Below, in pieces: positions 4,853 through 55,623 of a stretch of 64,000 nt of DNA (the first letter of the stretch is position 1; the number at the start of each line of letters is the position of its first letter). The stretch is taken from IMG/VR virus record IMGVR_UViG_3300024265_000031; one strand, given 5' to 3'. Below the pieces are notes generated by a model that was not told the origin of the DNA, did not search any database, and was given only the letters and a program-made list of their open reading frames with translations. The DNA is from a virus. The position numbers and the translations under genes were made by a program.

Positions 4853-5039
4853 TGGTTATTTTATAATATTTCCAAATAAAATCAAAGTTTTATTTCAAAT
4901 TGTAACAAGAAACATAATACAATTCCACCTATAATAAGAAATAAAAAATTAGCTAATCCCAACACATATACAGGTAAATATAAAACTATTCCAATTAAAG
5001 CAATATTTATTATCCATTTGCCAATAATTCGTAACATAT

Positions 5040-5558
5040 TTATTTATTTTCCAATGTGTTTGTTATATCAAATAAAATTTCTTGGATTTTTCTATTGCTA
5101 TCAATGATGTGTGTAACTTCACTTTCAATTCCTTGAAAAACTCCTTGGTCTGAAAATATTCGTTTTACTATTTCCATGATTTCATCGCCTCGTTTTGCCA
5201 TACGAATTAGCCTTTCCCTTTCTGTACATTTCAAATAAAAAGATGTAATATTTAGGTTTTTCATTTTCTTTAATTGTCGTAATCCACTTGGTTCTACAAC
5301 TACAACAGCATCATTTGTGCAATCGTCTTTAGCAATGCCATAATGCCAACCACGATATGTAACGTGTTCTGCAAAAAATCCATCTTGCTTATTATACTCA
5401 AAAGCCTCTTCAGTTAAAAAATGATAGTCTTTCCCATCGTTTTCGCTGGATCTTCCTGGCCGTGTAGTGTAAGATATTATTTTATCGTATCCCAATTTTA
5501 CTAATTCGTTTTCAATAGTGCTTTTCCCTGATGCAGATTCTCCCATGAGTACAATCAT
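5040..5558 (-). CDS. gmk: Guanylate kinase
   Basis: GESASGKS P-loop, SYTTRPGRSSENDGKDYHF signature, YGI. Confidence 0.9.
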   Translation of the reverse strand: MIVLMGESASGKSTIENELVKLGYDKIISYTTRPGRSSENDGKDYHFLTEEAFEYNKQDGFFAEHVTYRGWHYGIAKDDCTNDAVVVVEPSGLRQLKKMKNLNITSFYLKCTERERLIRMAKRGDEIMEIVKRIFSDQGVFQGIESEVTHIIDSNRKIQEILFDITNTLENK

Positions 5559-6109
5559 AATTCCGCTGCTTCAATCACAAATTTGACACAATTCACTACC
5601 TTTTCCCAATTTTCTGCTATAAGAAAACCTGAAGAATTTTTTTGTTCAAGTTCATTCCAAGGTCTTGCATATAGAATTGATAATCCAGAAAAATTATTTA
5701 TATTATGTATAGCATCATCAATCATTATGTTTGCTTTGATAAGACTCTTATCGTGGCATTCAAAATAATCCATTTTATTACACTCATATCCATGGTCATT
5801 TAGCCATCTAAGTTTTCTTCCAGCAGATCCATTGGTAGAAGCTGTTGTAAAAATAACCCTATGTCCCATTCGTCTTAATCTAATTATGCCAACTTGAGAT
5901 CCTAGCACTGGATGTATGTAATCATACATGTTTGGATTTTCAATGTAATCAAGAATCTTATTCCCACATTTTGGACTAACAAACTTCTCTATGTCCCATT
6001 CAATTATATCTTGCGGACGAAGATAATCTCTGTAGTCGCGGTTATATTCAAGCAACCACCTAGAAATTAAATCAGCACACACATCATCTACATCTACCAT
6101 AACAATCAT
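5555..6109 (-). CDS. 5'(3')-deoxyribonucleotidase (HAD, NT5C family)
   Basis: DVDDVCAD, DKSLI, MIDD, PWN motifs. Confidence 0.88.
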   Translation of the reverse strand: MIVMVDVDDVCADLISRWLLEYNRDYRDYLRPQDIIEWDIEKFVSPKCGNKILDYIENPNMYDYIHPVLGSQVGIIRLRRMGHRVIFTTASTNGSAGRKLRWLNDHGYECNKMDYFECHDKSLIKANIMIDDAIHNINNFSGLSILYARPWNELEQKNSSGFLIAENWEKVVNCVKFVIEAAEL

Positions 6110-6140
6110 ATATTTTTCCTGAATAAAATAATCATTTTAT

Positions 6141-6533
6141 TTAAGTATACCACACTTCACCTTCAACTTTGTGATATTTTTTTTCATAAACAAGAACGCC
6201 CCCTTCTATTGATCCATCCTGAATAGAAAGCATAACATTTTTGTTTTTTAAAAAATCATATTCAATCTTGAGATATTTTTCAATGTTATCTTTCTGATCA
6301 TTCATGTAAAAGACAACGGTTTCAAACTTACCAAATGCATAAACATCTCTATTTAAACTAGATAAGATTGCTTCTGCATCTTCAAGTTTTGTTGTATAAA
6401 TGTTTTCATGATGTGCAAAAGTGTTTGCTGTAAAATCATGTGGCATAACAACAACTGTCTTATATATTCCTCCAAATACAGCTTGTTCTCCTATCCTTTT
6501 AGATTTAAAACCCTTTCCTTGAAAAATCAACAT
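6141..6533 (-). CDS. Hypothetical protein
   Basis: ORF with AGGAG RBS, flanked by palindromic sites. Confidence 0.7.
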   Translation of the reverse strand: MLIFQGKGFKSKRIGEQAVFGGIYKTVVVMPHDFTANTFAHHENIYTTKLEDAEAILSSLNRDVYAFGKFETVVFYMNDQKDNIEKYLKIEYDFLKNKNVMLSIQDGSIEGGVLVYEKKYHKVEGEVWYT

Positions 6534-6573
6534 TCTGTTCTCCTGATATTCAATAAAATGATCGTTTTATCTT

Positions 6574-6864
6574 TTAAAGTTTGAATTGAATTGACGAGAA
6601 CAAGTACTTATTTATAAAGGGAAACAACACTCTACCACACCACACAATACTCAACCAACCCAAAGGAAGTATAGAAACAGGAATAAAACTTGCTACAAGC
6701 CATCCGTTTTCCTTAGTGTCTTGTTTTATCATATCGGAAAAACACCATGCCAATGATGCCCAAGTTAAGAACATAGGCAATCCCATAATTAATATGATAA
6801 TTCCAATAATATAAAAAATAATTTTCCACAATATCGTATTTATTTTTCTCAATAAAATAGCCAT
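6574..6864 (-). CDS. Hypothetical membrane protein
   Basis: Two hydrophobic segments; start moved to MAILLRK to avoid overlap. Confidence 0.6.
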   Translation of the reverse strand: MAILLRKINTILWKIIFYIIGIIILIMGLPMFLTWASLAWCFSDMIKQDTKENGWLVASFIPVSILPLGWLSIVWCGRVLFPFINKYLFSSIQFKL

Positions 6865-6865
6865 T

Positions 6866-7057
6866 TTATTTATCGTCATCGTTCCAATGATTTCCAATCC
6901 ACCAAAATATAACAATAACTATTGCCGCAGAACTAAACACTAAAGTTATTATTGGTAAATCTAGCCAATCTCCATCGAACTGTGTTACACACCAAATACA
7001 ACTTGCATATGTTCCGCCGCACAAAAATGCCAATGCGTACTTTATTCCTTGTATCAT
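6866..7057 (-). CDS. Small membrane protein
   Basis: AGGAG RBS, two hydrophobic helices. Confidence 0.7.
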   Translation of the reverse strand: MIQGIKYALAFLCGGTYASCIWCVTQFDGDWLDLPIITLVFSSAAIVIVIFWWIGNHWNDDDK

Positions 7058-7066
7058 TTTATCTCC

Positions 7067-7270
7067 TCAGTTTTTATTTTCTTCTTTATTATTTGTTGCT
7101 GAATAAAAATCTTTTCCAATAAATTTAATTGTTGGAACAGCAAACAATTTTTTAGCAATTTGATTACAAATGGGACATGCTATATTTAGTTTGCTAGGAT
7201 CTTCCCAGTGTTTAAAAAGTTTTTCAAATGTTAATTCGCAAGAAGCGCATTCAAATTCATACAGAGGCAT
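7067..7270 (-). CDS. FmdB-family zinc-ribbon protein
   Basis: MPLYEFECASC...CPIC...FIGKDFY. Confidence 0.85.
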   Translation of the reverse strand: MPLYEFECASCELTFEKLFKHWEDPSKLNIACPICNQIAKKLFAVPTIKFIGKDFYSATNNKEENKN

Positions 7271-7772
7271 TTTTCTTTTTCAATTTCTTCAATGGCTTTT
7301 TAGACGTTGAATGATAAGCTCTCTTAATCACACGCATATAATGCATTCTTCCCCTATGATTATTGCCAAAAACTCTTTTCAGAGTAGCCATAGCTAGACC
7401 AAATTCTTCAGAGAATTTATCTTCTTTTGTGCATCTCACTGTAGTTTTAGTGCCATCAGGCCATAAAACAGTTGTGAATGGATCAGCAAACCAAATTTTT
7501 TCTGGTGTAAGTTGTTCAATCTTATTGAATTTCACTTGTCTTTTCCTTTTTTGTTTATTTCTATCATATATAATTTCTTCTTCTTTTGTGACTTTTACAA
7601 TATTATATTGGTTTTGAGGATATACCATATCTTCATTGTATCTGCTAGGATTTACAGCTATCCATCCACCTTTTCGTCTTCCCTTCAATTCTCCAGCCTC
7701 CAAAACTATAGTATATACTCTTCCATTGGCTAATTCTACAACCATTCCTGGTTCTAAATCTTTAAGTTTCAT
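7257..7772 (-). CDS. Hypothetical two-domain phage protein
   Basis: Likely start MKLKDLEPGMVVEL; C-terminal TTVLWPDGTKTTVRC...EFGLAMA domain common in phages. Confidence 0.7.
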   Translation of the reverse strand: MKLKDLEPGMVVELANGRVYTIVLEAGELKGRRKGGWIAVNPSRYNEDMVYPQNQYNIVKVTKEEEIIYDRNKQKRKRQVKFNKIEQLTPEKIWFADPFTTVLWPDGTKTTVRCTKEDKFSEEFGLAMATLKRVFGNNHRGRMHYMRVIKRAYHSTSKKPLKKLKKKNASV

Positions 7773-7776
7773 ATAT

Positions 7777-8232
7777 TTATTTATCCTTTTCTTGTATAAC
7801 AATTGAATCAATTTGATTTATATATGCTTCCATTACTAATCTATAACATGTCATATTCGGAAAATATTTTTTAGGATTTAAAAATTTCCAATCCTGTTCA
7901 TCTTGAAAAATTTTTCCTATTGCTGCCGCTATACCAGCAGATCTTGAAATTCCAGCAGTGCAATGAATTATCAAATAGTTGGCATTTTTCTCAGGGATAT
8001 CGTGAATAACGAATCCTACGATTTGTTCTGCGTCTCTTTTTGACATTGGAGTAGCATATTTAGTCTCGTTCCATTCAACGTCATCAAATGACATTCTTAA
8101 AATACTAATCAAAGATCCCAGTTTAATTTTTGCCCAAGGCGCATTATTATCAACAATAGATATCATAATAGAATTTTCTGGAAATTTCTCAGTTTCTTCT
8201 GCTTCTCTCTGTGACATTACTATAATTTTCAT
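7777..8232 (-). CDS. Protein-tyrosine/dual-specificity phosphatase-like protein
   Basis: HCTAGISRS (CX5R) loop, FDD acid loop, PN motif. Confidence 0.88.
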   Translation of the reverse strand: MKIIVMSQREAEETEKFPENSIMISIVDNNAPWAKIKLGSLISILRMSFDDVEWNETKYATPMSKRDAEQIVGFVIHDIPEKNANYLIIHCTAGISRSAGIAAAIGKIFQDEQDWKFLNPKKYFPNMTCYRLVMEAYINQIDSIVIQEKDK

Positions 8233-8256
8233 AATTCTCCAGATAAAATCTTGTTT

Positions 8257-9243
8257 TTATTGGGTATCGTTTTGATCCCAACTACCTTGATACAATTTCA
8301 TATGTTCAACTTCTGTTCTATCCATGATAACACGAAAATACAATTCTGTCAAGCCCTTTCGGTCTGCTGAGAAAGGCAATTCTGAATGCTCGTACCATTT
8401 ATTAAAATTTAAATCAATCTTTTCTGCTTCTTCAACCACTTGTTCGTATGAAAAGGATCCATTTTTTATTCCCAAAAGGAATTCTCTGTTATTTAATGGG
8501 AACCTAATCTCTCCAGTAAGTAAAAGCTGTCTTCCTTCTTCAATCAATCTAAATAAATGATAGGCATGTTTAGTATCATAACCATGTTTATCTTCTAAGA
8601 TTTTTCGTTCTGGGTTACGATTCTTAAACCATTGCATATAATTGTCCCATTTCTTTTTTTCAATCCTATATTCAACTTCTCTATAGATTTCATCCACTAC
8701 TGCTTCATGTAAGTATGCCTTACCAATTTTTGCAATTGCATCAAGACCTTCGCCAGAAATAAGAGGAACATCAGGTAATCCACGTTCAAATCTAGTTGGT
8801 TTTTTTGTTGGTGGATTGATAAACCATTGCCTACGTCTCTTGATCGCATTCAACTGGCTAATAGCATATCCAGAGAAAGTATACCTTGCTTTTTTGCTAA
8901 GAAACAAATGTTTATTCTCAAGTATAAGTTTCCATCTGTTATTCATATGCAAAATGTTTTCATTGGGAATGAAAAGCATTTCAATAATGTTTGGATTGGC
9001 ATCAGCACACAGTTTGAAGAATTTAGCTAATGCATAAATTGTTTTATCTTCATTTTCAAACCCGCTATCTTTTTGATCGAAGTTCATAAAGGGGTCTAAA
9101 AGAATTTCTTCTGGCGGAAGACACACTCCCCTATAATCATAGTCAGAAATCTCTGTATGTGTGCCGTATAATCTGCTGCCTGTCACACACTCAAAAATTT
9201 TAAAATCTAGATGGTCAGGATCAAACTTTATTTTTTGTTTCAT
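8257..9243 (-). CDS. Pol-beta superfamily nucleotidyltransferase (T4 NrdC.11/RlaP-like)
   Basis: GSRLYGT...SDYDYRGV, NPNIIEML, GYDTKHAYHLFRL. Confidence 0.88.
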   Translation of the reverse strand: MKQKIKFDPDHLDFKIFECVTGSRLYGTHTEISDYDYRGVCLPPEEILLDPFMNFDQKDSGFENEDKTIYALAKFFKLCADANPNIIEMLFIPNENILHMNNRWKLILENKHLFLSKKARYTFSGYAISQLNAIKRRRQWFINPPTKKPTRFERGLPDVPLISGEGLDAIAKIGKAYLHEAVVDEIYREVEYRIEKKKWDNYMQWFKNRNPERKILEDKHGYDTKHAYHLFRLIEEGRQLLLTGEIRFPLNNREFLLGIKNGSFSYEQVVEEAEKIDLNFNKWYEHSELPFSADRKGLTELYFRVIMDRTEVEHMKLYQGSWDQNDTQ

Positions 9244-9267
9244 AAAATTTTCACGGAAGTCCTTATT

Positions 9268-9489
9268 CTAAAAACAATTATTGTTTTTAAAATCTTCTGC
9301 TATTTCTTTATCTAGCAAGTCAAAATCAAATTCCCTATGTTTTGTAATTTTTCTTCTATCGCATCTTATGCATCTCTTATAGGCGGCCCAATGTCTTACT
9401 GGCATTCCAAAGTCACTATGGCCAAGATATTCTGTTTTATCCATTTTCCAAATGTGATCGCAAAAAATTTGTGTTATAAATTTTAACAT
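9268..9489 (-). CDS. Small Cys/His zinc-binding protein
   Basis: FCDHIW...CIRC. Confidence 0.65.
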   Translation of the reverse strand: MLKFITQIFCDHIWKMDKTEYLGHSDFGMPVRHWAAYKRCIRCDRRKITKHREFDFDLLDKEIAEDFKNNNCF

Positions 9490-9491
9490 AT

Positions 9492-9710
9492 TTATTTTGG
9501 AGCTCCTCTTCTTAGTTTACTATAAGGAGAATCCTTGCAATCACATGTTATGGTCTTTTCTATTGCTCCCTTTTTCAATAAAAAATGCATGTATCCATCG
9601 CAAACCCATATTTTGTCTTGAAGAATCTCGCGCTTTGAATACTCAACAATATTGTCACATTTATCCATTATTTTATTCCTTTCCAATAAAACATTCATTT
9701 TATCTGTCAT
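9492..9710 (-). CDS. Hypothetical protein
   Basis: Co-oriented, overlapping neighbour. Confidence 0.6.
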   Translation of the reverse strand: MTDKMNVLLERNKIMDKCDNIVEYSKREILQDKIWVCDGYMHFLLKKGAIEKTITCDCKDSPYSKLRRGAPK

Positions 9711-10107
9711 TGTAGATTGCTGTTTCTGCCATAATTTTTCTTAATATGTCCATATCTCCAGTTTTGTTATGTTGTCGTAAATCCTCTCTAATCTTTTTTA
9801 TACATTCTATTGCATGTTCATTTTCTTTTCTAAGAGATTCGACTTTAATTGTCTCGCTTCTTTTATTAACTTGTTCGCCATACATTTCCCACCACTTTTC
9901 ATCTAAATCGCCAGCGAATAGATGATTTGCTTCAGATTTTTCTATTTTTACCATAACAAATTTTCTTGTTACTTCATTTTCAAGTAACTTTTTGTGAGAT
10001 TTGGCAATCCAATGAGCTAAATCAATAGCTTCCAATGTTACGAGTCCATTTTCAGAGGTTGACCATATAACCCAACAAGGAATTTTTGGTTTATTTTCGT
10101 CTATCAT
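9700..10107 (-). CDS. Hypothetical protein
   Basis: GGAG RBS directly after palindromic site. Confidence 0.7.
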   Translation of the reverse strand: MIDENKPKIPCWVIWSTSENGLVTLEAIDLAHWIAKSHKKLLENEVTRKFVMVKIEKSEANHLFAGDLDEKWWEMYGEQVNKRSETIKVESLRKENEHAIECIKKIREDLRQHNKTGDMDILRKIMAETAIYNDR

Positions 10108-10131
10108 GTCTTCTCCAATAAAATATTGCTT

Positions 10132-10380
10132 TTATCTGAATAAGACAATTTTATTTTTTTTATCAACAAAGATATATACTGTTTCTTGGTGTTTTTCCAA
10201 TGTTCTGCCTAACAGTTGCCTTGATAACCAACAAGACTCCTTTTTCCATTTCATGTTTTCTTTTTTAATTTTAAGATTATCTATAATTAAGTCTTCATAT
10301 TGCTGATAATAATAAACATTATAGCCCCAAAATTCTCGTTCTATCTCTGCTTTTATTGCATCCACTATTTCTTTTTTCAT
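10132..10380 (-). CDS. Hypothetical protein (copy 1 of duplicated cassette)
   Basis: GGAG RBS; stop in palindrome arm; near-identical copy at 10859-11017. Confidence 0.75.
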   Translation of the reverse strand: MKKEIVDAIKAEIEREFWGYNVYYYQQYEDLIIDNLKIKKENMKWKKESCWLSRQLLGRTLEKHQETVYIFVDKKNKIVLFR

Positions 10381-10403
10381 ATTTTCTCCAATAAAAATTC
10401 ATT

Positions 10404-10595
10404 TTATTTAATTTTTTGAATCATTAATCTGGTTGCAAGATACACTATCGGACAAGGCCATGTAAATACTAGAATAATCCATGTCCAAACTTTTAACAAT
10501 GAAGACTTGCTTTCATCATCTCTTAAAGTACAATCCCAGTATGCTGATGCAAGAGCTAAACCACATAAATAATAAAGTATATATATTATAACCAC
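10404..10595 (-). CDS. Small membrane protein
   Basis: Two hydrophobic segments. Confidence 0.6.
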   Translation of the reverse strand: MVIIYILYYLCGLALASAYWDCTLRDDESKSSLLKVWTWIILVFTWPCPIVYLATRLMIQKIK

Positions 10596-10849
10596 TAAGA
10601 CGCTCCCTTTCCCTTAGTATCATTAAAAATATTGGCAACATCCCATTCCCACTGTTCTTCTGGATCTCCTATTTCTTGTTCCAAGATTGTTTGTGTCCTA
10701 TGCCACATATCTATTTGTAATTCTGGTGCTGCAAAAGATGCACTTGTTTGAGCTTTTCTAAGATTCATTATGAAAACGCCATGTTCTCTTATCTTAGGAA
10801 TACATTCTATAATTTCTTCTATTATATCATAAATATTTCTATCTGTCAT
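10595..10849 (-). CDS. Hypothetical protein
   Basis: AAGGA RBS, co-oriented. Confidence 0.7.
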   Translation of the reverse strand: MTDRNIYDIIEEIIECIPKIREHGVFIMNLRKAQTSASFAAPELQIDMWHRTQTILEQEIGDPEEQWEWDVANIFNDTKGKGAS

Positions 10850-10858
10850 TTTTTCCTT

Positions 10859-11017
10859 TTATCTGAACAAAACAATTTTATTCTTTTTCATGTTTTCTTT
10901 TTTAATTTTAAGATTATCTATAACCAAATCTTCATATTGTTGATAATAATAAACATTATAACCCCAAAATTCTCGTTCTATCTCTGCTTTTATTGCATCT
11001 ATTATTTCTTTTTTCAT
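10859..11017 (-). CDS. Hypothetical protein (copy 2, 52 aa, lacks 90 nt present in copy 1)
   Basis: MKKEIIDAIKAEIEREFWGYNVYYYQQYEDLVIDNLKIKKENMKKNKIVLFR. Confidence 0.7.
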   Translation of the reverse strand: MKKEIIDAIKAEIEREFWGYNVYYYQQYEDLVIDNLKIKKENMKKNKIVLFR

Positions 11018-11045
11018 ATTTTCTCCAATAAAACGTTGGTTTTAT

Positions 11046-11318
11046 CTAAATTACTACAACTGAATTTTCAATCACAAATTCAATCTCAACAAAATCTTTT
11101 CCTATTGTTACTGAAAACCCACCAGTGCTACATGCCCCAACATCTTTTTCACACAAATCAAACAACGTTTTGCAATTTTCTTTCATGTCTGATATGTTTG
11201 GCACTCCTTCAATGCCTGTCCAAGCCCAATTTAGATATTCCATAACATCTTTAACTGTTTTAAAATTAAAATTTTTCATTGCTTCATCAAATGCATTTTG
11301 TTTTTGTTCATTATTCAT
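11046..11318 (-). CDS. Hypothetical phage protein
   Basis: GGAG RBS; FNFKTVKDVM..LNWAW..STGGF pattern; flanked by sites. Confidence 0.75.
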   Translation of the reverse strand: MNNEQKQNAFDEAMKNFNFKTVKDVMEYLNWAWTGIEGVPNISDMKENCKTLFDLCEKDVGACSTGGFSVTIGKDFVEIEFVIENSVVVI

Positions 11319-11353
11319 TATTTCTCTCCAATAAAACGCCTGTTTTATTTAAA

Positions 11354-11596
11354 TTATTCTTGTTTCAAACTATTAATTTCTTCCTTTAAATCATCAATGG
11401 TATCAAGATATTGGGATTCACCTGATTCAAGAACTTCATAACCATAAGTCAAATCGGATAATTCCTCTTTTAGGTCTTCCACATTCTTTGTTAGTTTTTC
11501 AATAGCTTTTTCTTTATCATTTAAAAGTTGTGTTATCTCAAAATCAACAGCAAATCGTTTTCCGTTTATTTCAACCAAATATACTGTATCAACCAT
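11354..11596 (-). CDS. Hypothetical coiled-coil protein
   Basis: GGAG RBS; flanked by sites. Confidence 0.7.
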   Translation of the reverse strand: MVDTVYLVEINGKRFAVDFEITQLLNDKEKAIEKLTKNVEDLKEELSDLTYGYEVLESGESQYLDTIDDLKEEINSLKQE

Positions 11597-11813
11597 ATTT
11601 TTACTCCAGATAAAACAAGTGTTTTATTCAAATCCCATTTTCTTATAACAATCATCACATACTATTGAACAGTCATCTGTAGTAGAATCTTCGCCAAAAT
11701 TATTCTTCATTTCAGCCACAGCTTCTTCCTCTGACCAACCTTTTTCAAATTCTCCAGAACATACTGCACACTTATACTCATTATCTTTCATAATTATCTC
11801 CAAGATAAAACTG

Positions 11814-12098
11814 TCATTTTATCTTTATTCTATATCCAAGTGCTTGTTCAATTTCTTCATGTGTCATTTCGTTTACTTGAAAATATTTTTCATAATCTTC
11901 CTGTGTTGCTCCACTTCTATTGATATCAATATCATCACCCCAATTTACAGGCGCAACTTGCACATCAAACTCATTGAGCATTGCTTCGCACTTAAGATCC
12001 ATGGCGTACAATAAATCATTTGCCGTTTTATAGCAATTATTCATATCAACAGCATACAATGTCATTTTATATATTTTGATTGGGTGTGTTTCTGTCAT
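11814..12098 (-). CDS. Hypothetical protein with C-terminal MTxEEIEQxLGY motif
   Basis: AGGAG RBS; flanked by sites. Confidence 0.72.
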   Translation of the reverse strand: MTETHPIKIYKMTLYAVDMNNCYKTANDLLYAMDLKCEAMLNEFDVQVAPVNWGDDIDINRSGATQEDYEKYFQVNEMTHEEIEQALGYRIKIK

Positions 12099-12124
12099 CT
12101 TTACTCCTAGATAAAACGGTTATT

Positions 12125-12484
12125 TTATTTAGTCACAATTCCTATTTTATATCCTAATTGATCTTCAATTTCTTGTTGAGTCATTTTTATAATTTGATGA
12201 TCTTTATCCAAAATATTTTTCCAAAGATCACTTAATGGATTCCATGTAAATCCAGTTGTTCTTGTTGGCGCATATATTTTTGTTATGTTCATTCTTTCAA
12301 CATCAACAAATTCTATGTCATTTTTGGTAAAATAATAAATTGGATTCCATCCTTCATCATTACAATCATTAGTTTGACTAAATATAGTATCTTCCCCCAT
12401 ATAGGAATTTAAAACAACCATATATATTTTTCCCCCAAACGCTTCTATCAGCATTCCGCTTTTTAAATCACTTCTTTTTATCAT
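12125..12484 (-). CDS. Hypothetical protein with C-terminal MTxxEIEDQLGY motif
   Basis: AGGAG RBS; flanked by sites. Confidence 0.72.
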   Translation of the reverse strand: MIKRSDLKSGMLIEAFGGKIYMVVLNSYMGEDTIFSQTNDCNDEGWNPIYYFTKNDIEFVDVERMNITKIYAPTRTTGFTWNPLSDLWKNILDKDHQIIKMTQQEIEDQLGYKIGIVTK

Positions 12485-12600
12485 TTTTATCTCCTAGATA
12501 AAACAGGTATTTCATTTGCCAAAAATAAATGTAAGACCCAACATGATTAAAAATACAACAATGATAAGAGTCCCTGGATCGATTTCAAATTTTCCAAATT

Positions 12601-12822
12601 TCATATTTTTTCTCCTCGCTCTTCCATAATCCAATATTTTGCTTTATTTATAAATTGTCTGGCTGTTTCTGTATCTCCATGTTCCAACACTTATTGAGCA
12701 TCACTAAGGATTGACATAGCCCACAATAAATTATCATAGAACGAGCTTTGTTCTAATTGCATTTGTTTAATTGTTATACCAAACATTTCTATTTCTTGAT
12801 CTTTTTTGGATCCTGCTAACAT
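12601..12822 (-). pseudogene. Small phage gene with in-frame TAA at 12691-12693
   Basis: RBS and ATG at 12822; reads MLAGSKK...AMSILSDAQ*VLEHGDTETARQFINKAKY..., frame continues to TGA at 12601. Confidence 0.6.
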
Positions 12823-12870
12823 TTGTTTTCTCCTATTTTCTTGTATATTTAAATGAAATGAACCTTTTAT

Positions 12871-13068
12871 TTAAAGTATATATACTTGTTGTTTAATTTC
12901 TGTTATGCTTTCTACCCAACCTTCTTCTTTTAATTCTGGAACAACATTTTGAATGTTTAAACAAACGGCTGTAACATCTTGAGCAACTATAGAAACCGTC
13001 TTGTTATTGGCATATTCTTTTTTAAGTCTTATAACTACGTCATATACTTTCATTTTGCATCTCCTCAT
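12871..13068 (-). CDS. Hypothetical protein
   Basis: AGGAG RBS before internal ATG (MKVYDV); promoter TTGATA-17-TATAGT just upstream. Confidence 0.65.
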   Translation of the reverse strand: MRRCKMKVYDVVIRLKKEYANNKTVSIVAQDVTAVCLNIQNVVPELKEEGWVESITEIKQQVYIL

Positions 13069-13219
13069 ATTTTACTATATCATACTTGTTCGCTTTTATC
13101 AAATCACCACCCACTAGCCAATATTATAAGAGCACCTACCAAACAGAATAAACATCCATATTAAAGTACTATCTTCCATTTTATATCTCCTTGTATCTTA
13201 CTAAATTTTGATTTACTCA

Positions 13220-13265
13220 GTTCTCCTTCGGGATTCGAACCCAACACACCAATTCATGAGGAGAA
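13220..13265 (-). ncRNA. tRNA-like mini-RNA lacking an anticodon arm
   Basis: TTCTCCT/AGGAGAA 7-bp acceptor, TTGGG-TTCGAAT-CCCGA T arm, 14-nt D-like linker CATGAATTGGTGTG. Confidence 0.6.
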
Positions 13266-13293
13266 GTATTTCTATTATTGTAACATATTTGAC

Positions 13294-13689
13294 TTATTCT
13301 GTCAAGCCTAAATCTACTTCGACATCTGGAACAATTGTGCTTGGTCTAAAAATAACACGATAACGGTAAATACTTTCCGTTGATGATTCAATCTGTTCCG
13401 CAAAATACGTCACGTTATCTGATAATCCAAGAAAGTGTTTCTTGTATGCTTCAGGGCCAACCTTGCAAGTTACGGTCAATTCACCATCACTGTCATAATT
13501 TCCAAGAGAACACAGTCCTTCAATTTGCAAAATATATTCGCTTGTTATCCCATTGTAAAATACGATACGGCGCGTTACTTCAAAGTTATCAGCCGCAAGC
13601 GACAGATTCCTTGATGCTACGTCTGCTGGTTGAGCGCATCCACTGAAAATCAGAACAATCAACAATACAATCCAAAGTAATCTTTTCAT
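13294..13689 (-). CDS. Lipoprotein of a conserved phage family
   Basis: Signal peptide with lipobox FSGC; ADNFEVTRRIVFYNGIT motif. Confidence 0.8.
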   Translation of the reverse strand: MKRLLWIVLLIVLIFSGCAQPADVASRNLSLAADNFEVTRRIVFYNGITSEYILQIEGLCSLGNYDSDGELTVTCKVGPEAYKKHFLGLSDNVTYFAEQIESSTESIYRYRVIFRPSTIVPDVEVDLGLTE

Positions 13690-13937
13690 TTTTTATCCTT
13701 TTTATTTTTATAGTTTAGTCAATCTAAGTTATATCACATTTCTTATAAGCATCTCCAAATAAAATGTTGTTTTTATTTAAAAGCTGTAATGATCTGTAAA
13801 CCAAGAAATTCCTTTACCGCATATACAAATACCAGTAACCCACCCCCCAACGTGAATTAATCCACTGGCAGGAAAGAACCCTCCGATCAGACAAAATAAA
13901 AGCCCAATAAAAATAAGTATATCTGTTGCTGTTATTT

Positions 13938-14309
13938 TCATATCGTTTCCTTATACAATGCATTTTGAATTTCAAAAAATCCAAACGGCAAACCATTTAA
14001 TTTACCCTGCTTATCATAACTTGCTTTGGTTACATTGCCATTAATTATATGTACATCAATGTCCCAATAATCTAACCTGTTATCATTAATCATATGTCCA
14101 ATAAATGTAGGTGTTGTTTGTCTCAACGTATAAATATTTAAACAATTATAATCTCCCCCTTTTGCTAATGAAATATGTTCTAATATATACTCACATTCTT
14201 CTACTGGATTTCTTGATCTCTCTGGATAAAAAAGCTGCAATCCTTTCTTTTTTTGTTTAAATAATCCCACATCTTTTTCATTCTTCATAATTATTAAATT
14301 AATTTTCAT
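13938..14309 (-). CDS. Hypothetical protein
   Basis: AGGAG RBS before MKINL. Confidence 0.65.
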   Translation of the reverse strand: MKINLIIMKNEKDVGLFKQKKKGLQLFYPERSRNPVEECEYILEHISLAKGGDYNCLNIYTLRQTTPTFIGHMINDNRLDYWDIDVHIINGNVTKASYDKQGKLNGLPFGFFEIQNALYKETI

Positions 14310-14491
14310 TGTATATCTCCTGTTAGACAACCATTTTTACAATATGGATCACTATCTAAAAATTCTGTGTCATCACAATGATTTTCTTTACCACAAAAAA
14401 CACATGGCAACATTAATGGATCCTCTTCAAACATTTTTTTTACTTCTTTACTGTTACTTTCGATTAAACGTATGGTATTACTCATTACCAT
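14306..14491 (-). CDS. Small Cys-rich protein
   Basis: CVFC..C..C..C, overlapping operon structure. Confidence 0.6.
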   Translation of the reverse strand: MVMSNTIRLIESNSKEVKKMFEEDPLMLPCVFCGKENHCDDTEFLDSDPYCKNGCLTGDIQ

Positions 14492-14733
14492 TGATTCTCA
14501 GATTCTACTGGAACTTTGAATGCAAGAGCAAAACTTTGCAAGCATTTCTCACACAAATCAAAGTGCCATATTTGACCATCAAATCTAGATCCATAGCCAA
14601 ACCCAATTTTTATTTCTTGCATCAAACTTACAAAATGTTCGCTTGTTACTTGCTCTATTTCCCCACAACTATTGCAAACAATTTCAGACACTTCATAAAC
14701 AGTCTTTTTAGTTTCTCTTAGGAAATCTCTCAT
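14485..14733 (-). CDS. Small zinc-finger phage protein
   Basis: CNSC...FGYGSRFDG...DLCEKC. Confidence 0.75.
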   Translation of the reverse strand: MRDFLRETKKTVYEVSEIVCNSCGEIEQVTSEHFVSLMQEIKIGFGYGSRFDGQIWHFDLCEKCLQSFALAFKVPVESENQW

Positions 14734-15410
14734 GATTCCTCCAATCTTTTTTGTGCAATTTGGAACATGACTGGATCATTTTCGAGCCCCACACAATTCC
14801 TGTTATTGTCTTTTGCCCACCTTGCAGTAGTTCCTGAGCCAAGAAATGGATCAAGTATCCAATCATCTTCATCAGTAAATGGCAATAGCAATCTATCCAT
14901 AAGTTTCAATGATTTTTGCCATTGAACATTTTTGCCACTTTTGTCCTTGACTCTTTCTTTTGACATTGTATGAAAATTGCCCAAATCATAGAATACGTCA
15001 CAAGGAATTTTCAATCCAGTTCCCTTTTTATCTAATGCTGTACCTGCAGTTTTTTTGGGCACTCTAATACGATCATGATAAAACTTGTAATCTTTTCCTT
15101 TAGCCCAAATAAGAATGTCATCATGTTTTCTTGGAAAATATCGTTTAGAAACCCCTCCCCATTCCATGACATATATGGCATGATTAACAAAGTATGCTTT
15201 CAAATCATACTTGAATATCATCATATATTCACCTACAGTATGATGGTCTGTTTGCACAATAAATATACCATTTTCTTTGAGCAATTTCCAGCATATCTCT
15301 ACCCAATCAAAATTCATACTTTCATAGATACAATCTCCATAGACTAAATCAAACTGTTTATTAATCTGATTTAGCCATGTAAGATTGTCTGTGTTATGAA
15401 GTTCTATCAT
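14730..15410 (-). CDS. DNA amino-methyltransferase (N6A/N4C, beta-class order) with atypical catalytic motif
   Basis: C-terminal ILDPFLGSGTT SAM-binding motif, QK motif; motif IV reads DCIY instead of DPPY. Confidence 0.85.
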   Translation of the reverse strand: MIELHNTDNLTWLNQINKQFDLVYGDCIYESMNFDWVEICWKLLKENGIFIVQTDHHTVGEYMMIFKYDLKAYFVNHAIYVMEWGGVSKRYFPRKHDDILIWAKGKDYKFYHDRIRVPKKTAGTALDKKGTGLKIPCDVFYDLGNFHTMSKERVKDKSGKNVQWQKSLKLMDRLLLPFTDEDDWILDPFLGSGTTARWAKDNNRNCVGLENDPVMFQIAQKRLEES

Positions 15411-16438: not shown

Positions 16439-16481
16439 TTTATATATCTCCTTTATTTTCTAGTCTAATTTATCTTACTTA

Positions 16482-16510
16482 ATTATATCATATTTGATTC
16501 ATTATGTCAA
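16482..16510 (-). promoter_or_regulatory. sigma70-type promoter
   Basis: TTGACA-17-TATAAT, TG extension. Confidence 0.85.
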
Positions 16511-16549
16511 GTCAAAATTGTTATTGTAGCTACGGATAAAATCCATGTT

Positions 16550-48939: not shown

Positions 48940-51666
48940 ATTACTACGCCTAAAAAGCTACAACAGTACTACATATTTAAATTTAAATCGAGCAGGCTTA
49001 AAAACAATGATTACAACATAAAGTTAGACATAGGCCAAAGTCGTAAAAATGGTGAATTGATCAGTATGGGGGATTCACAAATGCTGAGAAGTTTGCGGAA
49101 CATAAAAGACCAACAAAATAATCAAGAAGAAATAACCACTCTGTTTACAGAAAAAAATAAAATTAAAAATAGAGTTTCTAGTAAAGAAAATTCCAAAAAA
49201 CTAAAAAGATTGCAAGGTAACATAGACAGAATTCTTTTTGTTCCAGAAATCATTAGTGTGGTTATAGATGATAACCGTCACTATGATAATATAATTAAAA
49301 ATGGACTTTTTATAAACAACAAAAAATTTGTAAGATTATTGTGTGGGGCTGGAAATGCCAGAAGAGACACGGTTATATTTGTAGCAGAAAATTATGAGTT
49401 TGAATTGAAAGAATTATTGAATAATAATAGAAATTCAACTCAATTAGTTCCAGCAAAGTTTAATGCATATTTTGCTTTGTGTGCTTCAGCTACATTACAA
49501 GTAAGCGAACCATATTTTTGTGTGATCCCAGATTGTGTAATTCCTAAAACGGTTGAAGTTGACTATATCAATGGTGACAACACAGTAATTCAAAAACAAA
49601 TGGAAATTTCATTTAATTTGTTTGATGGGATGGGATTGATTTCTCCAAGGGGGGCTGAAATGTGGGCGGGTGATTTAGGGTTAGATTATATACCTGCTAC
49701 TTTCATAATCCGCAATTCCTTTTTAAAGGGAATGGTCTGCGTAATGGATTTTAATAAATTCTCTGATGAAATTGGAAAGCATTTGATAAAAGATATATGG
49801 GGAAATACTGTAAATACAAGAGACATGGATTTGATTTTAACAGAATCACAATTTAAATTATGGAATGCATATGATTCGTGCGATACATATATACAAGCAT
49901 GTAGACAAAACAATATGACTTGGGGAATTTCCAGATATGCTCCTAAAGAAGAAAGTACATTTGTTTTTAGTAACTATCAGTTTTTGCAAGCCCTTGATTT
50001 AAATGAATCACAAATTGAAAAATTATGTCAAAAAACAATTGATTATTTTGAGGGAGTAATCAATGAAGATATTGCATATACTTTATTATATTTGTTAGGC
50101 AAAAATTCAAGCAAATCTTATGATTCTAATATTATTGATAAAGTGTACGACAATGTAACCAAGGCCATATTGTTGCACAATGACTTGTTAACTGATCCAT
50201 ACATTAAAAATTACATCATTAGATCTTTAAACAAGAAAATTAAAAAATCCTATATTGGTAATCTAATAATGGATGGAAATTATCAAATAATGATACATGA
50301 TCCTTATGCGTTTATGGAACATGCATTTAGTCTATCTGTTAAAGGCTTGTTAGAAAAGAACACTCATTATAGTACTTATTGGAATGAAAGAGATGTTGAT
50401 ATAGTAGTCGCTTGTCGCCCTCCTTTAACTTGGAGATCTGAAGTAAATAAGTTAAACTTGATTTCTGGAGCAAAACAAAAACACTGGTACAAACATATAA
50501 CAGGTGGTATCATTTATAATATCCATGGCCATGACACTATGCTTCATGCAGACAGTGACGTTGATGGTGACATAATAATGACTACAAACAACACTCAAAT
50601 AATTGACGGTTCGTATGGGGGCTTGCCCATTACGTATGAATTAAACAAAATTTCCAAAGAAACAATCATGGAAGAAGAACTATATAAAGTAGATAAAAAG
50701 GCTTTTCACACTAAAATAGGCTTCATTACCAATTGTAGCACCACATTGTATTCTATGTTGCCAGAATATAAAGAAGGTTCATTAGAATACAATACCCTTA
50801 TCAATCGTTTAAAAATTTGTCGTAAAGAACAAGGAAATCAAATAGACAAGTCTAAAGGATTGCAAGTCAAACCCTTTCCCAAACATTGGACAACGTGGCA
50901 AAAAGTACAAGTAGATAAGGAATATTCTAGTAGAGATCTCAAAAAAATAGACCTTGACAATTCTATTATAATAGATAAGCGTCCTTATTTTATGCGTTAT
51001 TTATATAGTGGCTACAACAAGAAATATAAAAAACATTTGCATAATTATGATAATTATTCGATTGCATTCTTTGGCAAAGAGCTTGACCAGTTATTAAAAA
51101 ACCCTGGAACCAAAGAAGAGCATGATACAATTAGCAAGTATTATAGGTTTAGTCCATTGCTGGATTCAAAATGTCTTATGAATAAAGTTTGTCACTATAT
51201 GGAATCGCAAGTTAATTTACTTAAAGAAAAACATCGTCCACATATTACAGAAAAGAACATCATGTTATTGAAAGACCATTCTATTGAAACAGATCCAACA
51301 AAATTGAAAAAATTATATGATTTATATAAAAAATATAAAAATGAAAAACGTAATTTTGCCATGATCTATAATGAAGATGGTACGGCTAAGTATAAAACTA
51401 TTGAACAATTTAATAAGTCTGTTCGTCAAGAAGCCTATAATACAATTAGTTCTAATATAAGCGAATTAGCAAATCTTGCAGTAGCAATTTGCTATGAAGC
51501 TCATGTTGCAGACAATAAATCTTTTGCTTGGAGTGTTTTTTCTGAGGGGATTATTCAAAACATTATGAAAAACAAACAGAAGAATATTGTGGCTCCCTTT
51601 TTGGACAGAAATGGAGATATTGAATATTTGGGCAATATGTATGCATTGAAAAATATTGAGATATAA
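48940..51666 (+). CDS. YonO-like single-subunit two-barrel DNA-dependent RNA polymerase
   Basis: DSDVDGD (DxDGD) catalytic motif, FDGMGLISP, KGM, R.P, GFITN, IDKSK; frame extends upstream of track start to ATT at 48940 behind GGAGG. Confidence 0.88.
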   Translation: MTTPKKLQQYYIFKFKSSRLKNNDYNIKLDIGQSRKNGELISMGDSQMLRSLRNIKDQQNNQEEITTLFTEKNKIKNRVSSKENSKKLKRLQGNIDRILFVPEIISVVIDDNRHYDNIIKNGLFINNKKFVRLLCGAGNARRDTVIFVAENYEFELKELLNNNRNSTQLVPAKFNAYFALCASATLQVSEPYFCVIPDCVIPKTVEVDYINGDNTVIQKQMEISFNLFDGMGLISPRGAEMWAGDLGLDYIPATFIIRNSFLKGMVCVMDFNKFSDEIGKHLIKDIWGNTVNTRDMDLILTESQFKLWNAYDSCDTYIQACRQNNMTWGISRYAPKEESTFVFSNYQFLQALDLNESQIEKLCQKTIDYFEGVINEDIAYTLLYLLGKNSSKSYDSNIIDKVYDNVTKAILLHNDLLTDPYIKNYIIRSLNKKIKKSYIGNLIMDGNYQIMIHDPYAFMEHAFSLSVKGLLEKNTHYSTYWNERDVDIVVACRPPLTWRSEVNKLNLISGAKQKHWYKHITGGIIYNIHGHDTMLHADSDVDGDIIMTTNNTQIIDGSYGGLPITYELNKISKETIMEEELYKVDKKAFHTKIGFITNCSTTLYSMLPEYKEGSLEYNTLINRLKICRKEQGNQIDKSKGLQVKPFPKHWTTWQKVQVDKEYSSRDLKKIDLDNSIIIDKRPYFMRYLYSGYNKKYKKHLHNYDNYSIAFFGKELDQLLKNPGTKEEHDTISKYYRFSPLLDSKCLMNKVCHYMESQVNLLKEKHRPHITEKNIMLLKDHSIETDPTKLKKLYDLYKKYKNEKRNFAMIYNEDGTAKYKTIEQFNKSVRQEAYNTISSNISELANLAVAICYEAHVADNKSFAWSVFSEGIIQNIMKNKQKNIVAPFLDRNGDIEYLGNMYALKNIEI

Positions 51667-53191: not shown

Positions 53192-53521
53192 ATGAATGAA
53201 AGATTTAATCGTGAATGGCTAATAAAAGAATTATCAGAACGTTATCAATTTACTAAGGGTGATGTTAAAATATTGATGGATGGGTTTAAAGAGATCTGTG
53301 AAGAAGTTGTGGAGAATCAAGACATACTTCATATTCCTGCGCTTTTTACATTGCAGGTTACTCCAATGAAGCCAAAAAAATATTGGAATATGCGCGAGAA
53401 GAAAATATTGGAATACAGTGGATCTTTTAGGGTGAAATTTACACCATCTCAATTATTGAGCAAACGTGCTAAAGTAGCGCATGAAGAATCATTAGAGGAG
53501 GAATTGGAATATGGCGAGTGA
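53192..53521 (+). CDS. HU/IHF-like DNA-binding protein
   Basis: LIKELSE...F.L...WN.......VKFTPSQLL; position matches SPbeta yonN. Confidence 0.8.
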   Translation: MNERFNREWLIKELSERYQFTKGDVKILMDGFKEICEEVVENQDILHIPALFTLQVTPMKPKKYWNMREKKILEYSGSFRVKFTPSQLLSKRAKVAHEESLEEELEYGE

Positions 53522-53825
53522 TATACAGGGCAGGTACTATAGCGAAACATTAACTTCCGCTTCGGCTAATTATGATTTAATGGATATTTTTAGGGAAAGG
53601 TTGGCAATACCTGCCACGGCTCCATTTGTAGCAAAAAAGGTAACGTTGATCAGTTCTGGATCTGCTTCAATTAGTGTAAACGTTAATAATGTTGGTAATG
53701 CCACATTATTTGAAAATGCTGATGGCAATCGAGTTTTAAATTTAGACGGAAAAGATGTTCTGGTTTCTTCTTTAAAAGTTGTTGAAGCTAGTGCAAGTAG
53801 CATTTTCCTAGCCATTGTATACTAG
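53511..53825 (+). CDS. Hypothetical (probable virion) protein
   Basis: GGAGG RBS; Ser/Ala/Val-rich beta composition. Confidence 0.7.
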   Translation: MASDIQGRYYSETLTSASANYDLMDIFRERLAIPATAPFVAKKVTLISSGSASISVNVNNVGNATLFENADGNRVLNLDGKDVLVSSLKVVEASASSIFLAIVY

Positions 53826-53834
53826 GGGTAAAAA

Positions 53835-54098
53835 ATGGGTATAAGCAGAGTTGCTACATTTAAAAGTGGAAATACTAGTTGTATTGTTGAATCTGATGAG
53901 GGGATTTTTACTTTGAAGGCTACTGATTTACTTGGCCAATTTAATACGGCTGGAAAAATTTTAACAGAATGCAATAAATATATAACTAAAGATTCCATAT
54001 TTTTCCATAAAAACAGGGATGGAACCATTGCAATAGCAACTGGGGCGGAACCTGATATATGGCCTGAAGATGAATCTGAACCAAAAGAACCTAAATAA
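53835..54098 (+). CDS. Hypothetical protein
   Basis: GGGG RBS; stop inside palindrome arm. Confidence 0.7.
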   Translation: MGISRVATFKSGNTSCIVESDEGIFTLKATDLLGQFNTAGKILTECNKYITKDSIFFHKNRDGTIAIATGAEPDIWPEDESEPKEPK

Positions 54099-54147
54099 AA
54101 TGGGCGTTTTATTGGGGTTGATGATTGTAATAAATAAGAGGTGAAAT

Positions 54148-55560
54148 ATGGGCGTTTTGTTTAATATTAATCATCAGACTGGTGATTTGAGCCAGTATGA
54201 TTCTACTGTTACGGATGGGGGCGATCTTTCTGTAACTGCTGCGGCTAATATGAGTGGAACTAATTCGTATGGGTTGCAGTGTTTAATTGATGTTGGAAAT
54301 GACGCTATGTATGGGCAAATGAATCAAACTGATCCTGGAGGGGGGAAGTTGAGACTTAGGTTTTATGTGAATCCTAATGGGTTAACTATGGGAGAGGGGG
54401 AAGCATTTAGTATTTTGACGCTGAATACAACTGAGGCAGGTGTATCTTACTTGGCTTATGTAAATTTTCTCTATACTGTTGCTACAGGATACAGGGTAAG
54501 AATTGCTGCTCGTGAAGATGATAATACATATTTTGAAACAGTAGCAATTAATATTACAGATGATGTTCATTATATCGAAGCATATATTCAACAAGCTGCG
54601 ACTAATGTATCCTCTGATGGATCAATTGCGTGGTGGATTGACGGAATAGCTCAAACAGAAGTAACTGGAAAAGATAATTTTGATGCTTTTGCAAATATAA
54701 GCAATTTACAGTTTGGAACGCCTGCATTTCTAGACGCAGGAACATCAGGAACCTTCTACCTAGACGAATTCCTAGCCAACGATGACGGCTCCGAAATCGG
54801 CGCAGTAACAACTCCTTCAGGAACCCTATTCAACATAGACCACCAAACAGGCGATCTCTCCCAATACGACTCCACAGCAACAGACGGCGGAGATTTATCA
54901 GTTACAAATCCTGCTGGATTGGCTGGAACTAATTTTGGGTTGAATTGTTTTGTGGATACTACTGATGCTATGTATGGGCAAGTTGATCAGGCGGATACGG
55001 GGACGGGGGTTTTGAGGTTTAGGTTTTATGTCAACCCTAATACCTTGACAATGGCTGATAATGATGAGTTTACACTATTGCAATTTTTTGGAACAACTTC
55101 AGATTTTATAGTATTAGTTCAGTTGGGATACACCTTAGCAAATGGTTACAATTTGAGAACAACAAGTAGGAATGATGCCAATCAAAATGTTATAAATTTT
55201 ACTGAAAATATAACAAATTCTGTGCACTTTATTGAATTAGACATGCAGCAGGCAGCTACCGATGTTAGTTCTAACGGATCTGTTGAACTGTTTATTGATG
55301 GGGTGTCTAAAGCATCAGGGACATCAATAGATAACTATGATATTTTTGCTGACATGCAAACATTTCGTTTGGGGGCAGCATTTGGTCTAGACGCAGGAAC
55401 CTCTGGCACATTCTACCTAGATGAATTCCTAGCCAATGACGACGGCTCCGAAATAGGTCGTAGAGTTTCCCCATTCGCTGAAGGAAAAGGCGGAAAGTTA
55501 GTTTCTGCAGGAATGACAGATTATGGTTTGGTTAACCCTCAAGGACTAGCGAGTTTCTGA
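54148..55560 (+). CDS. Acidic protein with two tandem ~220-aa beta-sandwich (LamG/concanavalin-like) repeats
   Basis: LFNI.HQTGDLSQYDST..DGGDLSV...HYIE...IDG...FYLDEFLANDDGSEIG occurs twice. Confidence 0.8.
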   Translation: MGVLFNINHQTGDLSQYDSTVTDGGDLSVTAAANMSGTNSYGLQCLIDVGNDAMYGQMNQTDPGGGKLRLRFYVNPNGLTMGEGEAFSILTLNTTEAGVSYLAYVNFLYTVATGYRVRIAAREDDNTYFETVAINITDDVHYIEAYIQQAATNVSSDGSIAWWIDGIAQTEVTGKDNFDAFANISNLQFGTPAFLDAGTSGTFYLDEFLANDDGSEIGAVTTPSGTLFNIDHQTGDLSQYDSTATDGGDLSVTNPAGLAGTNFGLNCFVDTTDAMYGQVDQADTGTGVLRFRFYVNPNTLTMADNDEFTLLQFFGTTSDFIVLVQLGYTLANGYNLRTTSRNDANQNVINFTENITNSVHFIELDMQQAATDVSSNGSVELFIDGVSKASGTSIDNYDIFADMQTFRLGAAFGLDAGTSGTFYLDEFLANDDGSEIGRRVSPFAEGKGGKLVSAGMTDYGLVNPQGLASF

Positions 55561-55623
55561 AATTTTTCCAAATAAAAGGGAGGTTTTATTTAAAACTTTC
55601 TCAATAACTAAAAGGGAGGCTTT

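Follow-up and report, generated by a model that had tools for sequence, protein, structure and literature searches.

Palindromic sites with individually distinct centers at the gene junctions of an SPbeta-like phage: candidate crossover points for in-register module exchange

Tyrosine recombinases require matching centers in the two sites that they recombine, and take the orientation of the exchange from these centers. In cassette exchange with heterospecific lox or FRT sites all sites have the same arms, and their spacers are incompatible with one another; only like sites exchange with each other, and order and orientation are kept. These systems are engineered and employ two or three site variants. 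Here we analyze a stretch of 64,000 nucleotides (the window) from the IMG/VR virus record IMGVR_UViG_3300024265_000031, in which a short palindrome, ATRAAA-N6-TTTYAT, recurs at the junctions of small genes with a different 6-bp center in each copy. If these palindromes are heterospecific dif/lox-like crossover sites for the in-register exchange of modules between matching slots, a reading to which we assign a probability of roughly 0.45, the system would be a natural one, with 30–70 variants per genome.

Among the natural systems, the pdif (Xer) modules of Acinetobacter plasmids and the single-recombinase systems XerA, XerH and XerS share with the present array the inverted arms, the 6-bp center, the gene modules bounded by sites and a Xer-type recombinase. 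Here, however, the recombinase is phage-encoded and lies in a structural operon, the arms are A/T-only, near-symmetric and approximately 8 bp long, and there are dozens of sites per genome, with centers that all differ and a placement inside operons between the stop codon and the Shine-Dalgarno (SD) sequence. A role in the resolution of chromosome or plasmid dimers is not evident.

Integron arrays (attC sites, IntI integrase) likewise consist of mostly promoterless single open reading frames (ORFs), each with an imperfect palindrome behind it that starts at or close to the stop codon, and use a tyrosine recombinase. The attC sites are 57–141 bp long with R''/L''-L'/R' boxes, recombine in a folded, single-stranded form with extrahelical bases, and contain a conserved GTT crossover triplet, whereas the sites described here measure 18–22 bp, have A/T-only arms and share no common crossover triplet. 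An integron further has a single attI site, one Pc promoter and an adjacent intI gene. None of these is found here: the 89-kb record that carries the array contains no match to the integrase domain PF00589, the recombinase lies 15 kb away in a late operon, and there are several internal promoters. The first-pass annotation of the window had proposed an integron-like array for the capture and shuffling of small phage genes. As every center in the genome differs and a tyrosine recombinase needs matching centers, such free capture is disfavored, and the relatives discussed below show exchange at the same conserved site, not cassettes moving between sites.

The promoter-early stem-loop (PeSL) cassettes of T4-type phages (PMC2839356; PMC4122927) resemble the array in their short motifs between small accessory genes, which lie in hyperplastic regions and at the boundaries of insertions, deletions and replacements. 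A PeSL combines a strong sigma-70-like early promoter with a terminator hairpin rich in G+C, and homology is the proposed route of its recombination. The palindromes of this phage, in contrast, contain neither promoter nor terminator, have a center of variable sequence and fixed 6-bp length, and co-occur with a Xer-like recombinase. In a 20-kb stretch with approximately 22 sites we detected about 6–7 near-consensus sigma-A promoters and one terminator-like hairpin, most hairpins being weaker than -3 kcal/mol, and hence not the PeSL composite of promoter and stable terminator. What the two do have in common is the presence of the motif at indel and replacement boundaries between close relatives, which we observed among SPbeta-like phages.

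Many short protein-binding sites across a temperate phage, often in short intergenic gaps, are also known from the stoperators of cluster A mycobacteriophages (L5 gp71) and from MrpR and its site SPBRE. Stoperators are asymmetric 13-bp sites of invariant sequence that are oriented with transcription. SPBRE is a different 15-bp sequence, found at approximately ten SPbeta promoters and bound by MrpR, a protein with the tyrosine-recombinase fold (PMC10516654). Neither has a variable center or is reported as a block boundary, and the palindromes described here differ from both in these two respects.

We scanned for ATRAAA-N6-TTTYAT with dinucleotide-preserving shuffles as background and the reversed pattern as control. 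The window contains 49 exact matches, where the shuffles have 0.54 on average and never more than 2, which rules out chance or AT content as the origin of the sites; in the whole viral record (88,920 bp) there are 66 exact matches and none to the reversed pattern. An array of 47 exact 18-bp core sites occupies the junctions of small minus-strand genes (4876..45247, minus strand), with 6-bp centers that are all different. The remaining two exact matches are isolated, one between two plus-strand genes of the late/structural block (54095..54112, plus strand) and one between the gene for a 470-amino-acid protein and the next plus-strand gene (55572..55589, plus strand). The first-pass annotation had reported about 47–50 copies of an 18-bp palindrome at 4876–55589 and had asked for a comparison with shuffled sequence; both the count and its independence of AT content are borne out. 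The symmetry, which it had described as often extended, goes further than noted, to 22 bp (A-R-ATRAAA-N6-TTTYAT-Y-T), with two more positions per flank (A and R before the left arm, Y and T after the right arm). The center spacing is exactly 6 bp in the 66 sites, and a few variants have a 5-bp center. The arms are A/T-only and near-perfectly symmetric with approximately 8 bp conserved per arm (8 positions in this genome, 5–6 in SPbeta and in the related genome G002). Two inverted arms around a 6-bp center match the geometry of Xer/dif-type core sites, which have a central region of 6–8 bp, in agreement with the dif- or loxP-like architecture suggested earlier.

Genes in the window lie on the minus strand up to approximately position 46,000 and on the plus strand beyond. 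Read on the coding strand, the layout at a site is a stop codon, A-R-ATAAAA, six variable bases, TTTTAT-Y-T, GGAG 1–5 nt further on, and a start codon. The stop codon of the upstream ORF falls within the arm (A-TAA-AA) at 22 of the 49 window sites and abuts the arm at 12 more, and an SD-like motif with a start codon follows in 32 of 49, with a modal arm-to-SD gap of 2 nt. Same-strand junctions with a spacer of 25–45 nt carry an exact site in 25 of 32 cases and a site with one mismatch in three more, whereas overlapping or coupled gene junctions contain none. Because the former are mostly occupied and the latter empty, the palindrome is the default spacer between non-overlapping gene units. This agrees with the placement at gene junctions that had been noted at first sight. 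The accompanying remark that sites are absent from large core genes holds for the window, where no site lies inside a long gene; in the rest of the record three sites fall within called ORFs. One of the strong promoters, a consensus sigma-A-type promoter with an extended -10 element (20246..20274, minus strand), is directly followed by the site at 20219–20236; other sigma-A-type matches at 11–12 of 12 positions end at 16482, 4824, 23249 and 13277. Given the ratio of promoters to sites in the 20-kb stretch, most gene units are without a promoter of their own, as the early picture of promoterless ORFs had it.

The variation of the arms was used to distinguish a DNA site from an RNA hairpin. At arm positions 3/16 the 66 sites comprise 48 A-T, 11 A-C, 6 G-T and 1 G-C combinations, with no covariation; at positions 0/19 there are 20 A-T, 18 A-C, 14 G-T and 9 G-C combinations, and independence fits (Fisher P = 0.6). 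No compensatory change that would sustain base pairing was found at either pair of positions, and the frequency of mismatches is that predicted for independent arms. In 11 window copies the mRNA strand has an A.C mismatch, so that the non-compensatory A/G variation described by the first-pass annotation is confirmed. RNA folding of six sampled copies gave -0.5 to -2.7 kcal/mol for five of them, several no better than shuffles; copies with extended arms alone fold stably (-7.8 kcal/mol, z -5.4), and TTTCAT copies form no hairpin. Since there is no selection for pairing, each arm by itself keeping the same degenerate half-site, and since most copies fold poorly, the palindrome is consistent with a site on double-stranded DNA that a symmetric protein would bind, which was also the preference expressed at the outset.

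The 6-bp centers were analyzed for this phage (G000), G001, G002, G005 and SPbeta, with 3000 shuffles for the pooled set. Within each of the five genomes no two sites have an identical center (0 identical pairs pooled, 3.4 expected; P = 0.036). Pairs of centers with at most one mismatch are likewise too few, with 26 observed and 53.6 expected in the pooled set (0 of 3000 shuffles as low), and 13 observed and 25.6 expected in this phage alone (P = 0.002). Self-complementary centers are absent from the pooled set (5.3 expected; P = 0.005). The centers are thus kept distinct and asymmetric. This is the outcome expected of selection if many sites coexist in one genome, because a tyrosine recombinase needs matching centers. 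The earlier suggestion that genes are bracketed by near-identical centers does not hold in general: TAAACC and TAGACC, at 25113 and 25433 around 25127–25417, are the sole neighboring pair of this kind, and near-identical pairs are under-represented.

To place the phage among its relatives we used the full contig (JGI Ga0114923_10000023; 150,292 bp), which has one mismatch in a 10.8-kb overlap with the window. A gene at 49057..51666 (plus strand) encodes a YonO-type single-chain two-barrel RNA polymerase (PF05183, 2e-18; 28% identity to the SPbeta yonO region, E 9e-31), which marks the SPbeta-like lineage. The record also encodes homologues of SPbeta YonV, YorS, the terminase YonF and YonG, and further right on the full contig there are YonD-, YomW-, YomU- and YomN-type genes. 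Judged by this gene content, the phage, which comes from a subsurface metagenome, is a distant member of the SPbeta-like lineage. A Herelleviridae or Bastille-like (SPO1-like) identity, based on a 680-amino-acid PF26675 protein, was dropped after the homologues of YonO, YonV, YonF, YonG, YonD and YomU/W/N had been found. A megablast search against phages gave no close relative, the best protein identities were 70% in IMG/VR and 73% in a large protein collection, and exact-protein look-ups matched only the same phage. Among sequencing runs, one DNA run, probably the source, and no RNA run were listed for the phage; the contigs of the DNA run gave just short joints of low likeness, located at repeats. 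With G001 it has just 32 genes in common.

For counts across genomes we used the core TAAAA-N6-TTTTA, again with the reversed pattern as control (in brackets). SPbeta has 34 sites (2), phi3Ts 30 (2), G001 38 (9), G002 57 (3), G005 25 (4) and G019 68 (16). BCP78 (G003) has 0 (0) and TsarBomba (G004) 2 (0), and the motif is lacking in all remaining Bastille-like records. The sites of SPbeta likewise start at a stop codon upstream of the next SD sequence. The outer part of the arm differs by lineage: this phage has ARATRAAA, G001 has AATAAAA, and SPbeta and G002 have no more than TAAAA. Several assignments of the motif were rejected or became less likely. A YonO promoter or other link to YonO correlates imperfectly with the motif, as there are arrays without YonO (G005, G019) and YonO-like genes without the motif (G015, G036); transcription by SPbeta YonO begins at a single promoter (PMC5467207). 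The SPBRE/MrpR operator is ruled out, as a different, A-rich and asymmetric sequence is common upstream of the ten targets identified by chromatin affinity precipitation and sequencing (ChAP-seq). A site for a host factor, considered since SPbeta also has the motif, is less likely, as all carriers belong to one phage lineage.

The evidence for exchange at the palindromes comes from a comparison of SPbeta 83–99.6 kb with phi3T, Goe13, SPbetaL8, L4, L2 and BUCT082. Of 27 breakpoint clusters, nine coincide with exact palindromes and two with palindromes that have one mismatch (11/27), against 5.6% for random windows, and each of the nine exact palindromes in this region is a homology breakpoint. 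Breakpoints between relatives had been proposed as a check, and in SPbeta-like phages they do fall at the sites; the palindromes are breakpoint hotspots, not the sole boundaries. A block that is 100% identical between Goe13 and SPbeta (86073–86907, the yoqD unit) extends exactly between two successive palindromes, and its flanks are unrelated. At the palindrome with the center AGACTG, three different left partners are joined to three different right partners. In phi3T, which is without yoqH-yoqI, the junction falls where the left arm of one site meets the center of the next, and between phi3Ts and SPbeta stretches of parental identity end 6–8 nt past palindromes. The methyltransferase gene mtbP forms an identical unit in SPbeta (113664–115059; L055) and phi3Ts/Hyb2 (104632–106027), with palindromes on both sides and divergent flanks, and in SPbetaL4 the annotated anti-defense gene Gad1 lies directly 3' of such a site. 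In Hyb2, a laboratory hybrid of phi3Ts and SPbeta, both crossovers fall within parent-identical stretches of 1.4 kb and 4.9 kb and are therefore not placeable.

Within the window, a duplicated gene unit has the same kind of boundary. Copy 1 (10118..10403, minus strand; gene 10132–10380) has a palindrome at 10118 and a variant with a 5-bp center at 10386–10402. Copy 2 (10853..11045, minus strand; gene 10859–11017, with an internal deletion) has a palindrome at 11028 and a lone half-site, CTTTTAT, at approximately 10856–10862 at the other end. The identity of the duplicates (repeat families D1, 94%, and D12, 89%) runs at one end through the SD sequence and the arm and halts at the center (ATTCA versus CGTTGG), and at the other end halts after the single retained half-site. 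Both ends of the homology thus lie inside palindromes.

A candidate enzyme is encoded on the same 150-kb contig, approximately 15 kb to the right of the window (L106:17049–18032), as anticipated by the first-pass annotation, which had supposed the recombinase to lie outside the window or to come from the host. It is a Xer-like tyrosine recombinase of 327 amino acids that exceeds the Pfam cut-offs for the catalytic domain (PF00589, 29.8 bits) and the N-terminal SAM-like domain (PF02899, 29.3 bits). In the alignment the catalytic R, K, HxxRH, H and Y are all intact; the nearest solved relatives in a profile search are XerD, XerA and XerH, and the protein resembles the XerC/XerA NCBIfam models. 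The gene follows that of a RuvC-type resolvase, which is itself preceded by a palindrome, and precedes the tape-measure gene in the late/structural operon, in synteny with SPbeta yomM. Homologues are present in every array-bearing record examined and in no motif-free Bastille-like record. From sequence and context, this Xer-like recombinase of the YomM family is the most likely enzyme to act at the sites, and we infer that it would bind and catalyze exchange there. Phylogenetic profiling for a protein exclusive to array-bearing genomes gave no clear candidate. A gene at 53192..53521 (plus strand) encodes a HU-like DNA-binding protein (PF00216; phrog_379), placed like SPbeta YonN, which is a possible alternative binder of A4-N6-T4 sites; HU-like/YonN homologues also occur in the motif-free relatives BCP78 and TsarBomba.

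In the proposed mechanism, each of the two inverted 8-bp arms would bind one protein monomer around the 6-bp center, and the catalyst would be a recombinase of the YomM family. The sites would be fixed crossover points at gene junctions, each with its own asymmetric center, and efficient exchange would be expected only between the same site of two related genomes, either two co-infecting phages or a phage and a prophage. Two such like-site crossovers would swap the intervening block of genes in register, much as heterospecific lox sites do in recombinase-mediated cassette exchange. As each center is unique and exchange would be confined to like sites, a genome could carry 60 or more sites without deletions or inversions. 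For SPbeta-like phages it is quite possible, if somewhat short of even odds, that this amounts to natural cassette exchange, in which a phage Xer-like recombinase acts on 30–70 heterospecific dif-like sites per genome with unique 6-bp addresses, so that related phages and prophages can swap accessory genes slot by slot and their genomes are not scrambled. We infer the same exchange for the lineage of the phage studied here. If correct, this would show in concrete terms how large temperate Bacillus phages come to be modular mosaics, and would explain the precise exchange of anti-defense and other accessory genes at gene boundaries, Gad1 occupying such a slot in SPbeta relatives. It would also be a natural counterpart of heterospecific-lox exchange, offering dozens of ready-made orthogonal sites, and is testable in SPbeta and B. 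subtilis 168. Under the rival readings too, the palindrome is of interest as a widespread cis-acting element of a model prophage, where it marks off almost all accessory genes. We found no description of these palindromes in the literature, including SPbeta reviews and the MrpR and YonO papers, in a search that did not extend to the 1999 SPbeta genome paper.

Several observations weigh against crossover by a phage recombinase. Sixteen of the 27 breakpoint clusters in SPbeta lie away from palindromes, mostly at other gene boundaries, and three indels that distinguish L049 from L050, in the lineage of G001, are located at SD/ATG junctions or within a gene, none of them at a palindrome. As the phage studied here has no close relative (best protein identity 73%), breakpoints in its own lineage are seen only at the one internal duplication. 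The conserved arms of 8 bp are shorter than the usual 11–13 bp of Xer or Cre sites, and the tight placement between stop codon and SD sequence would also suit an element related to expression. The association of the recombinase with the motif is loose and has phylogeny as a confounder: YomM-like genes are present in G009 and G020, which have only approximately six scattered sites each, and no variant arms co-varying with the recombinases were found in these two genomes. HxxK replaces HxxR in SPbeta YomM, in YopP and in the homologue of G002, although the exchange pattern is clearest in SPbeta, and MrpR, an SPbeta protein of the same fold, is a pure repressor (PMC10516654). Finally, selection against long exact repeats or perfect palindromes might partly explain the avoidance of identical or self-complementary centers; it does not easily account for the shortage of center pairs with one mismatch.

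Among the rival explanations, the one that survives best, although we consider it rather unlikely, is a conserved junction element with a role in expression (a regulator site or cistron insulator), which would at the same time be a passive hotspot where short shared sequence and general or annealase recombination place the crossovers, as proposed for PeSLs (PMC2839356; PMC4122927). The fixed position from the stop codon to just before the SD sequence, the occupation of nearly every non-overlapping junction and the location in transcribed regions, sometimes right after a promoter, all suit such an element; yet it includes no promoter or terminator, unlike PeSLs, and has no known regulator, MrpR binding SPBRE instead. 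Short homology could place the crossovers, as the breakpoints of SPbeta-like phages share the whole 16-bp site including the center on both sides, and SPbeta encodes the annealing protein YorG; moreover, the phi3Ts/SPbeta laboratory hybrids crossed over in long identical stretches, like ordinary homologous recombination. A shared stretch of just 16–22 bp, however, is below the normal need of homologous recombination, some boundaries fall between an arm and a non-matching center, and homology-driven deletion does not readily account for the deficit of center pairs with a single-base difference.

More doubtful still is an operator carpet, in which a dimeric phage protein, maybe with an inactive recombinase fold like MrpR, would bind at every junction and block or silence the accessory operons, in lysogeny or at a set time in infection, without any recombination, on the model of the mycobacteriophage stoperators. 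The dyad symmetry of the site with its independently varying half-sites speaks for this, as does the confinement of the array almost wholly to the early, host-transcribed region of small genes. SPbeta already has a repressor of the tyrosine-recombinase fold (PMC10516654), and its YomM and YopP proteins are without the second catalytic arginine; the recombinase of the phage studied here, on the other hand, keeps all catalytic residues. ChAP-seq of MrpR gave only approximately ten peaks, at SPBRE and not at the 34 palindromes of SPbeta. One site per gene far exceeds the need for a roadblock, and an operator leaves unexplained both the dissimilarity and asymmetry of the centers and the block boundaries at the sites.

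Very improbable, finally, is an RNA hairpin that acts before each ribosome-binding site of a polycistronic mRNA as a processing site, 5' stabilizer or translational coupling element: the sites always stand in a transcribed sense-strand context 1–5 nt before GGAG, the extended-arm copies fold well, and the center has some strand polarity (a purine at the last position in 62 of 66 sites), but no pair of positions covaries, A.C outnumbers G.U on the mRNA strand at 3/16 (11 and 6) and occurs at 0/19 in 18 of 66 sites, most copies are no stronger than -2.7 kcal/mol and several equal shuffles, and in SPbeta the 5-bp A-U arms would be weaker still and the SD sequence is 15–30 nt away.

Some further features of the phage were recorded. 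Window positions 835–4685 and the upstream part of the record (L102:921–17538) contain a large sugar-nucleotide and glycan cluster, of which G001 has a syntenic set, with genes for a UDP-glucose dehydrogenase, several epimerases/dehydratases, short-chain dehydrogenases, at least five glycosyltransferases, FkbM methyltransferases, a transaldolase and a HAD hydrolase; this cluster could modify DNA or the host surface. The accessory array includes five tRNA genes (Asp, Arg-TCG, Arg-TCT, Lys and Cys; 4725–4800, 29416–29647 and 37277–37349) and a tRNA nucleotidyltransferase gene (31524–32969). Between helicase-like and GmrSD-like genes, at 43362–43493, a G+C-rich unit of 36 bp, made up of interleaved inverted heptamers, is perfectly repeated in tandem three and a half times (family D2). 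At 43659–44888 (minus strand) a 409-amino-acid protein with a GmrSD N-terminal domain (PF03235, 1e-9) is encoded, a restriction-type nuclease domain on a phage. The 470-amino-acid protein mentioned above (gene 54148–55560) has no Pfam or PHROG match and contains an internal duplication of approximately 660 nt at 54300–55457 (families D4 and D5, 74–89% identity).

Short palindromes of other sequence were seen in further records. A 62% G+C relative (L048; IMGVR_UViG_3300002461_000585, 3921–16369) has a junction palindrome of its own, GTGAGC-N3-GCTCAC, with ten copies in 22 kb, mostly 5–10 nt before an SD sequence and start codon, which is possibly an analogue with different arms and a 3-bp center. 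Another record (L047; IMGVR_UViG_3300002054_000014, 921–14146) contains, within 14.6 kb, ten copies of a perfect palindrome of 16 bp (GTTTACCTAGGTAAAC and near variants of it), and some of these come after promoters or tRNA-like sequence. In a third phage contig (L027; IMGVR_UViG_3300037067_011287), TGAAC-N4-GTTCA, which has the form of a Gram-positive LexA (Cheo) box, occurs five times in intergenic A/T-rich regions. Of the two close phages L050 and L049, one carries a 955-nt insertion that breaks the reading frame of an epimerase gene (L050:2756–3710 versus L049:14057–14059), which suggests a mobile intron or homing-endonuclease element.

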